A DNA stretch of 64,000 bases from Candidatus Heimdallarchaeota archaeon (GTDB lineage: Archaea; Asgardarchaeota; Heimdallarchaeia; Heimdallarchaeales; Heimdallarchaeaceae), in assembly GCA_030603365.1 (NCBI GenBank), contig JAUVXV010000004.1, forward strand, positions 192,001 to 256,000. The letters are read 5' to 3'. The stretch's first letter is position 1, and each line of letters begins with the position of its first letter. The position numbers were made by a program, and so were the translations under genes. The notes beneath the pieces are model-generated. The model did no database searches, had not been told where the DNA came from, and saw nothing but the letters and a program-made list of their open reading frames with translations. Below are positions 48,808 through 49,417 of the stretch, piece by piece.

Positions 48808-48865
48808 GCAATAGAATAAAGAAAACCTTAAAAGAACATAAACGAGAAAAAATCGAGCACTGGTC

Positions 48866-48974
48866 GGGGACTTGGCTCAGTCCGGTAGAGTGGTTGGCTC
48901 CAGAGAACATTGCTTAGGCAATGACCACCGAAGAAACCAATTGGTCGGGTGTTCAAATCACCCAGTCCCCACCA
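48866..48974 (+). tRNA. trnW: tRNA-Trp(CCA) with 32-nt intron at 37/38 (48904-48935) and encoded CCA end
   Basis: Acceptor GGGGACT/AGTCCCC, anticodon stem GTTGG/CCAAT, anticodon CCA at 48900-48902, T-arm GGGTG-TTCAAAT-CACCC. Confidence 0.95.
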
Positions 48975-49044
48975 ATAACACTTATTTTTTAGAACTGTTT
49001 ACAGTTAGTTAAGTGCATTCAAAATAGCTCTCAAAATGTATCTT

Positions 49045-49110
49045 GGTGAGTGATGATTTCAAATTGGTTAGATGATAAATATGATTCATCTCTGGAGAAA
49101 TGAGCTCAAC
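49045..49110 (+). ncRNA. Box C/D guide sRNA predicted to 2'-O-methylate C34 and C39 of the adjacent pre-tRNA-Trp
   Basis: C GTGATGA 49050-56; D' ATGA 49072-75; C' ATGATTC 49081-87; D ATGA 49100-03; guides AATTGGTT and TCTCTGGAG antisense to the pre-tRNA; terminal TGAG/CTCA stem. Confidence 0.8.
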
Positions 49111-49156
49111 TAATACATGAGAAAAGCTATTTTGATTTCTACTTTTCATACATTAG

Positions 49157-49417
49157 TTATTCCACAAAAATCTTTTCACAACATTTCACAAAAGAATAAG
49201 GCATTTTTCTCTTTTCAGTATCTATCTCCCACATATAGCTGACATATTCTTGTAGTTCCTTTGGTAATAGTTTGAAAAGAGGAGCTAGTAGAGAATAACC
49301 TATTTTTCTTTGTATAATATCATCTGCCTCTAGAAAAACTACAGCATATTTGTAACAGGGAAATTTATCCTTGATTTCTTCTGATTCTAATATCTGCTTA
49401 GAAGCTTCTTCTTTCAT
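49157..49417 (-). CDS. Small hypothetical helical (HEAT-like) protein
   Basis: 86-aa ORF with upstream TATA-like TTTAAATA. Confidence 0.5.
   Translation of the reverse strand: MKEEASKQILESEEIKDKFPCYKYAVVFLEADDIIQRKIGYSLLAPLFKLLPKELQEYVSYMWEIDTEKRKMPYSFVKCCEKIFVE

Follow-up and report, generated by a model that had tools for sequence, protein, structure and literature searches.

In a 64,000-nucleotide (nt) stretch from a Candidatus Heimdallarchaeota archaeon (GenBank assembly GCA_030603365.1, contig JAUVXV010000004.1, positions 192,001 to 256,000 of the forward strand; hereafter the window, in which position 1 is the first letter), a gene for a box C/D small RNA (sRNA) lies downstream of the tRNA-Trp gene. 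We conclude that this sRNA is probably a free-standing guide for C34 and C39 of pre-tRNA-Trp, excised at a bulge-helix-bulge (BHB) element by the endonuclease EndA and closed into a ring by RtcB. The function, guidance of Cm34 and of methylation at position 39 of tRNA-Trp, is a known one and is largely as an earlier note on this DNA had read it; the genomic and biogenetic form is new. This reading is carried by the anatomy of the gene, its conservation, the covariation of its stems and of guides with target, and the presence of the protein genes; transcription, the two cuts, the ring and the methylations are what it predicts.

The segment 49047-49108 of the plus strand has the layout of a double-guide box C/D sRNA, with four boxes, two spacers, a C stem and a kink-turn (k-turn). 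Every string quoted in the earlier note was found in its place by direct reading of the window. The C box proposed there, GTGATGA at 49050-56, is not conserved, relatives having GCGGTGA, GCAATGA or GCTGTGA in its place, and the conserved register lies 3 nt to the right: AUGAUUU in the window, RUGAAUU in most members of the genus and xUGAWUU across the genus as a whole. The terminal TGAG/CTCA stem is present as described, except that it comprises 5 base pairs (bp) closed by U51-G104 (nucleotides numbered by the last digits of their window positions) rather than 4 bp and an unpaired G. Its inner three pairs are kept in 21/21 genomes of the genus, with C:G as the closing pair in 18 and U:G in 3.

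Folded by sequence logic only, the terminal k-turn has a 3-nt loop, G52-A53-U54, and places G55-A56 opposite G102-A103, giving the sheared pairs G55-A103 and A56-G102 followed by U57-U101, U58-A100 and U59-A99. Both pairs that extend the non-canonical stem (U58-A100 and U59-A99) are U:A in 20-21 of the 21 genomes. The consensus RUGAUGA (C)/CUGA (D) is replaced by AUGAUUU/AUGA in the window and by xUGAWUU/AUGA in the whole genus. Since the A for C in box D is matched by a U for G in box C, the pair between them is kept, with U6-A1 substituting for the usual G6-C1 of the RUGAUGA/CUGA k-turn, and the RNA may thus form a variant k-turn with a U-A pair in place of G-C. The C' box AUGAUUC and the D' box, gAUGA with its preceding base, are likewise matched variants. 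The pairing between them that the earlier note had claimed, U86-A72 and C87-G71, closes the internal loop, and this helix is supported in the alignment. Spacers are of 12 nt in most homologues and of 11 to ~14 nt in a few.

Features of the tRNA-Trp and sRNA genes in the window (MFE, minimum free energy).
Feature	Position	Strand	Basis or remark
tRNA-Trp(CCA) gene with encoded CCA (48972-74)	48866..48974	+	Rfam RF00005, 53.9 bits; ARAGORN; cloverleaf reading
tRNA-Trp exon 1	48866-48903	+	
D-guide target: C32-G37 and intron +1 to +3, C34 at N+5	48898..48906	+	exact complement of 49089-97
tRNA-Trp intron, 32 nt, without C or D box	48904-48935	+	
D'-guide target: last intron nt and A38-U44, C39 at N+5	48935..48942	+	exact complement of 49062-69
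tRNA-Trp exon 2	48936-48974	+	
T6 run after tRNA	48985..48990	+	likely archaeal terminator signal, by function predicted
Weak TATA-like GTTTACAG	48997..49004	+	~30 nt upstream of central BHB helix; putative
BHB outer helix, 11 bp	49019..49029 with 49125..49135	+	MFE fold, BHB scan
BHB central helix, 4 bp, CUCA/UGAG	49030..49033 with 49118..49121	+	covariation, RNAalifold
5' bulge AAA, 3 nt	49034..49036	+	predicted cut between 49035 and 49036 (+/-1)
Predicted excised RNA, 88 nt, whole C/D unit, probably circular	49036..49123	+	predicted from BHB geometry
BHB inner helix, 5 bp	49037..49041 with 49113..49117	+	MFE fold, RNAalifold, alignment
k-turn C stem, 5' strand UGAGU	49047..49051	+	pairs with GCUCA 49104-08, 5 bp
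C box AUGAUUU, conserved register	49053..49059	+	TGA >=90% conserved
D' spacer, 12 nt	49060..49071	+	guide pairs through 49062-69
D' box AUGA	49072..49075	+	conserved; degenerate (AUAA) in G009 only
C' box AUGAUUC	49081..49087	+	U86-A72 and C87-G71 close k-loop
D spacer, 12 nt	49088..49099	+	guide pairs through 49089-97
D box AUGA, not CUGA	49100..49103	+	ATGAGC invariant in genus
k-turn C stem, 3' strand GCUCA	49104..49108	+	directly abuts D-box GA
3' bulge AAA, 3 nt	49122..49124	+	predicted cut between 49123 and 49124

An Rfam scan of the window matched the tRNA-Trp gene to RF00005 over 48866-48971, the anticodon loop carrying an insert of 36 nt; ARAGORN calls tRNA-Trp(cca) when introns are allowed and misses it by default. 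In the cloverleaf, C34 is 48900, G37 is 48903, A38 is 48936 and C39 is 48937, and G27-G31 of the anticodon stem pairs with C39-U43. The intron carries no boxes and the guide lies outside the tRNA, so that guide and intron are indeed separated in the window, as first read.

The two guides span the two exon-intron junctions of this tRNA. In the D guide, TCTCTGGAG (49089-97), the fifth base upstream of the ATGA at 49100-03 (the N+5 position) is G49095, which faces C34 across the 5' junction; in the D' guide, AATTGGTT (49062-69), the fifth base upstream of D', G49067, faces C39 across the 3' junction. Both complementarities were pointed out in the earlier note and are exact in the window. Pairing was also computed in 28 genomes, each guide being set against the pre-tRNA-Trp of its own genome. 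The D guide places C34 at N+5 in 28/28, through a contiguous 9-11 bp, and its pairing takes in positions 32-37 and the intron nucleotides +1 and +2 in every genome. The D' guide places C39 at N+5, with 7-11 bp, in 24/28; it pairs with the last intron nucleotide (-1) in all 28 and with positions 38-44 in 26-28 of them.

Guides and target covary. Within the intron, compensatory changes are found at +1 (A:U to U:A in G014; numbers of this form denote individual genomes), at +2 (G:C to U:A in G046), at +3 (A:U to U:A in G025, G029, G027, G028 and G046) and at -1 (A:U to U:A in G014 and G027), and in G026 intron position -2 is also paired with the guide, as U:A. In the exon, G027 has U:A for A:U at position 41, together with a change at tRNA position 29, position 44 changes from U:A to A:U in G046, and position 42 goes from A:U to G:U in G027, G028 and G046. 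The covariation with the intron ends that the earlier note had thought worth looking for is thus present at +1, +2, +3 and -1. Because several of the covarying nucleotides exist only in the unspliced precursor, comparison of these genes indicates that intron-containing pre-tRNA-Trp is most likely the selected substrate, as in Haloferax and as first suggested for this locus; the pairing of +1, +2 and -1 in all 28 genomes is in keeping with this. On this precursor the D guide would direct 2'-O-methylation of C34 and the D' guide that of C39.

When 60 relatives were searched with BLAST, nearly every genome of the genus returned both the tRNA and, as a separate match, the segment of the sRNA. A covariance model (R1) built from 25 sequences finds one copy per genome in 30 genomes, with E <=4e-7: 27 of 30 relatives within the family, from five genera, the window genome itself (G000), and two members of a sister family, G046 (E 1e-10) and G032 (E 5e-8). 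In a third family, 22 genomes gave no sRNA with this model, and neither did the more distant families f5 and f6, where tRNA-Trp itself was not caught by pattern search. In the alignments the guide cores AATTGG (D') and CTCTGGAG (D), the UGA of each box and the ATGAGC at box D are invariant or nearly so, CTCTGGAG being invariant in 21 genomes of the genus; variation is seen in the D'-C' loop, in the sequences of the stems and in the flanks. The sister-family homologues have C boxes AUGAUGU or AUGAUGA together with canonical CUGA, as in the G046 copy, which reads AUGAUGU ... CUGA ... AUGAUGA ... CUGA with 12-nt spacers, and these canonical boxes tie the odd boxes of the window to ordinary C/D RNAs. 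Conserved boxes and guides are thus present in relatives from two families, and the original proposal that positions 34 and 39 of tRNA-Trp are served by a free-standing box C/D RNA with two guides is supported by conservation, N+5 pairing and covariation together.

The flanks of the sRNA form an inverted repeat. The minimum free energy fold of 49017-49137 (-33.5 kcal/mol, z = -4.4) reproduces a BHB exactly, and the whole motif, 49019-49135, is a canonical hBHBh' (helix, bulge, helix, bulge, helix) with the polarity that it has at a tRNA intron. When scanned mechanically, 18/21 members of the genus show this geometry, the other three having one mismatch or a weak outer helix. Across the 21 aligned genomes 100% of the cells of the central helix are paired, its third pair being U:A in 13, C:G in 7 and U:G in 1. 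Covariation extends to the inner helix and to the four outer pairs beside the bulge, and the A:U pair 49040:49114 of the window's inner helix is G:C in 18 relatives. The structure as a whole is paired in 80% of cells, compared with 36-45% when the partners are slid as a control, and RNAalifold predicts the central and inner helices with no structure imposed. Among 10,089 loose hits genome-wide, this BHB is the best canonical one free of G-U pairs, with 20 pairs; the same scan with G-U allowed is dominated by chance matches in coding sequence. Its top score falls outside the window on contig C15 of the same genome (56914-57185, minus strand), a 14-bp inverted repeat, GTATTTGTAACAGG / CTTGTTACAAATAC, around ~240 nt, which is BHB-like with many G-U pairs and may be chance. 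No convincing second case of a BHB-enclosed C/D RNA was found among 16 loose C/D pattern matches in this genome, the present locus being the only one.

From this geometry we conclude that the sRNA is probably cut out and ring-closed like a tRNA intron. In this genus a short transcript from its own promoter would fold into the canonical BHB around the sRNA, the tRNA-splicing endonuclease would cut at about 49035/36 and 49123/24, and RtcB would join the ends into a ring of ~88 nt; the cut rule, after the second bulge nucleotide, was derived here from canonical 37/38 intron geometry, and its register may slide by one base. The protein partners of the sRNA would be L7Ae, Nop5 and fibrillarin, and genes for all three are present in the genome, those for fibrillarin and Nop5 being adjacent. 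RtcB is encoded too, as are two paralogues with an EndA domain (at C13:113944 and C1:60945), a make-up linked in other archaea to broad BHB specificity. In some relatives the RtcB reading frame is much longer, ~1000 residues in G020, G007, G025, G030 and G027 (loci L145, L147, L148, L149 and L150), and matches the 494-residue RtcB of the window genome from residue 103, which suggests an intein or other large insertion.

The alternative that survives best accepts a true C/D sRNA for tRNA-Trp and takes the helix-bulge-helix for a mere terminal or processing stem, trimmed by other nucleases to give a linear RNA or an Rnl-type ring. It would account for the plain stems of homologues in other genera and for the three members of the genus in which the motif is imperfect. 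We nevertheless regard it as unlikely, because the geometry is exact, each strand having one 3-nt bulge, the two separated by 4 bp and in the polarity of a tRNA intron, and because compensatory changes preserve the motif in 18 of 21 genomes, whereas a plain stem needs no bulges of fixed size. An Rnl-type ring is further disfavoured by the lack of a clear Rnl gene (PF09414 at 23.4 bits, compared with a cut-off of 27, in a genome that is 89% complete). A likeness of the BHB flanks to stubs of the tRNA-Trp exons was also considered (CUCA-AAA and UGAG-AAA resemble CUCC-AGA and GAAG-AAA of the window pre-tRNA); it is absent in relatives, and a descent of the flanks from such stubs is speculative.

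Most archaeal C/D guides target rRNA, and the tRNA-Trp matches could in principle be secondary to a selected target in rRNA or another RNA. Possible targets were scanned in the complete 16S rRNA, the assembled 2 kb of 23S rRNA and 42 tRNAs, requiring at least 8 bp through N+5 with no more than one G-U. The sole match of the D guide is C34 of tRNA-Trp; the D' guide has three, C39 of tRNA-Trp, a site in tRNA-Met(CAU) and a 23S site of 8 bp with one G-U. Neither guide matches 16S rRNA, and the D guide has no match in the assembled part of 23S rRNA. The restriction of that part to 2 kb and the fit of the D' guide to tRNA-Met(CAU) favour another target, but the guides covary with positions specific to tRNA-Trp, including intron nucleotides found in no other RNA, and the gene stays linked to tRNA-Trp, at 75 nt to 5 kb, throughout the family. 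We therefore consider a different selected target very improbable. The tRNA-Met in question lies outside the window (contig C14, 73493-73627, minus strand); it is a multi-intron tRNA that ARAGORN names 'Ser(aga)' and that reads as tRNA-Met(CAU), and it shares the 3' strand of the anticodon stem, ACCAATTGG, with tRNA-Trp. The D' guide could put its C39 at N+5 (8 bp, one G-U), and the D guide does not fit it.

That the arrangement is a chance product of UGA-rich, AT-rich intergenic DNA, or a dead relic of a tRNA-Trp intron, is the least probable reading of all: UGA motifs are common in this AT-rich genome, the boxes are non-consensus and the loose C/D pattern matches 16 times in the real genome and 18 times after shuffling, but chance would hardly give one copy per genome in two families in which guides are invariant, loops vary and stems covary, and a relic would decay, as it has in G016, so that conservation already contradicts it. 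The earlier argument that two N+5 matches at the known positions are unlikely by chance is borne out by the conserved C/D pattern in relatives and by the restriction of the D guide to C34 of tRNA-Trp.

Several observations do weigh against a BHB-excised guide for C34 and C39. Boxes D and D' are AUGA rather than CUGA, and no Rfam family reaches threshold for the sRNA, the best matches (sR5, sn2343 and Afu_294, E 2-7, the lowest ~2) being at chance level; this is a weak test for C/D sRNAs, since C/D families are guide-specific. The duplexes in the window are short, 8 and 9 bp, and the 2 kb of assembled 23S rRNA leave room for an rRNA target. A mismatch interrupts the D' guide in four members of the genus (G001 and G011, N+5; G017, N+6; G019, N+4); these interruptions suggest that the D guide and its C34 function are the better kept, and that guidance of Cm39 is not kept universally. 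The canonical BHB is confined to this genus, homologues in other genera and in the sister family having plain terminal stems of 6-8 bp, and a start at the site predicted from the TATA-like element would leave only ~4-7 bp of the outer helix in the RNA. In four metatranscriptome contig sets only the tRNA-Trp of relatives, with its intron, was found, and none of the RNA sequencing runs listed contains the sRNA, which gives no verdict on its expression. Finally, all that is left of the gene in G016 is its 3' 45 nt, with the D box and the 3' half of the BHB (locus L050, G016:C141:1800-2140), which appears to be a natural loss of the guide. The sRNA would then be dispensable, in agreement with the viability of a Haloferax strain lacking the tRNA-Trp intron (PMC4090602).

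The earlier note had envisaged a dicistronic tRNA-sRNA unit, and this is not supported. The 45-nt spacer between the tRNA and the BHB stem holds the T6 run and the TATA-like element, and most relatives have TATA-like elements TTTATATT, CTATAAAAG or GTTTATCTG at the same distance. The guide, ~75 nt downstream of the tRNA in the window genome, is that close in only five other members of the genus; in the others the two genes lie 1.2-5 kb apart on the same contig. Linkage to tRNA-Trp, in varying orientation, is kept throughout the family and is absent in the sister family. Given the one or two intervening protein genes in most members of the genus, the T6 run and the TATA-like element, co-transcription of the two is not conserved, and the sRNA likely has its own promoter. 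A mobile element between tRNA and sRNA was also considered for the relatives and rejected, as the three gaps examined contain no integrase but ordinary genes, which encode an amine oxidase, an S15 peptidase, a phosphofructokinase and a protein of LTD/Ig type. On the other side of the sRNA, at 49157-49417 on the minus strand and thus convergent with it, lies an 86-residue open reading frame with no Pfam match, which is syntenic beside the sRNA, or beside its former site, in many members of the genus.

The tRNA-Trp gene shows some features of its own. Its splice motif is relaxed: C34 and A48931 form a C-A mismatch within the 4-bp helix, and the inner helix has one pair only, whereas the BHB that encloses the sRNA is perfect. 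About 35 nt 5' of the gene, GAAAACCTTAAAAGAA (48822-48836), found also upstream of the G014 orthologue, is likely the promoter element (B recognition element and TATA box, BRE/TATA) of tRNA-Trp. Extra introns at non-canonical sites occur in tRNA-Trp genes of the genus, in the T-loop in G010 (L016) and G014 (L029), after position 43 in G016 (L023) and in the D arm in G022 (L025), a genome with two tRNA-Trp copies, at C87:16096 and C87:19801.

A different arrangement is seen in G014, alone among 24 members of the genus. Its tRNA-Trp has exons and a promoter orthologous to those of the window, and its 37/38 intron, 85 nt long, contains a C/D unit, AUGAAUA - 11 nt - AUGA - 7 nt - AUGAUUA - 12 nt - AUGA, within a 7-bp stem, GCACGUG/CACGUGC. 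The box type and the assignment of D to position 34 and D' to position 39 are the same, and the guides are adapted to G014's own intron ends. No second copy was found in this genome with the R1 model (it is 82% complete), and alignment of the syntenic spacer between the tRNA and the 86-residue frame gave no convincing relic of a free sRNA, the sequence there being unrelated. The relation to the intron-encoded guide of other archaea that the earlier note proposed is supported by this unit. In a tree of RtcB, G014 is one branch of the radiation of the genus, with an unresolved backbone, and the outgroups are free-standing; the M3 peptidase was dropped as a tree marker because G014 has no assembled orthologue. 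Given these outgroups and the common free form, the intronic form in G014 looks derived. Outgroup parsimony, on which the direction rests, favours a move of the guide from a free-standing gene into the intron and does not settle it. The window's arrangement had been described as a possible intermediate between intron-encoded and independent guides; as a direction this is doubtful, since the free form is common in the family and occurs in the sister family. On balance we lean towards the view that within one genus the same guide exists as a free module in most species and inside the intron in G014, having moved while an intron-type biogenesis was kept.

The Cm34/N39 guide of tRNA-Trp is the textbook case of a functional tRNA intron, and in Haloferax, as reported by Singh et al. 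2004, the D guide is said to serve position 34 and the D' guide position 39. The intron-encoded guide of Euryarchaeota (Haloferax volcanii; Pyrococcus sR50) resembles the present one in being a double guide for positions 34 and 39 of tRNA-Trp that acts in trans on the intron-containing precursor and is released at a BHB as a stable ring (PMC3326292, PMC4090602, PMC11408192); the ring is made by EndA and RtcB in Haloferax, Sulfolobus and Thermococcus (PMC3326292, PMC9014305). It differs in that the guide here has a gene of its own outside the tRNA, which keeps a box-less 32-nt intron, position 39 is C rather than U, and the boxes are AUGAUUU/AUGA. Free-standing anticodon guides, such as those for the wobble positions of Pyrococcus tRNA-Leu and tRNA-Met and sR-tMet of H. 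volcanii, are likewise independent genes with N+5 on position 34, and sR-tMet also acts on an intron-containing pre-tRNA (see PMC7994747). None of these has been reported with a canonical BHB, or with both guides directed to positions 34 and 39 of one tRNA, and their circular forms depend on Rnl (PMC9014305).

Substrates other than tRNA introns share the order helix, 3-nt bulge, 4-bp helix, 3-nt bulge, helix, with cutting by EndA and ring closure by RtcB; they include the processing stems of pre-rRNA, the permuted signal recognition particle (SRP) RNA of Thermoproteus, the 5' untranslated region of HVO_1309 and the Cbf5 mRNA (PMC7714728, PMC4731332, PMC7994747). The difference is in the cargo, here a C/D guide, a class in which, according to reviews, BHB termini are not the norm. 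In tRNA-sRNA co-transcripts, both the plant tRNA-snoRNA units and those of Ignicoccus, Thermoproteus and Nanoarchaeum, the sRNA also lies just 3' of the tRNA on the same strand (PMC7994747). In contrast to these, the spacer here has a T6 run and a TATA-like element, the adjacency is not conserved, and the 5' end is predicted to come from the BHB cut rather than from 3' processing of the tRNA.

The known route by which free-standing C/D sRNAs become circular is through the Rnl ligase (PMC9014305), and reviews call the mechanism unclear. If the present reading is true, the splice motif would provide another route to circular C/D RNAs, through EndA and RtcB. The covariation of the guides with the intron is sequence-level evidence that methylation precedes splicing. 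Intronic residence is the normal state of animal snoRNAs, and the free and intronic forms of one guide within a single genus offer a tractable comparison for how guide RNAs enter introns. The tRNA-Trp guide system is extended by this locus to the closest archaeal relatives of eukaryotes, in which the partnership of guide and target outlasts a change of gene location.

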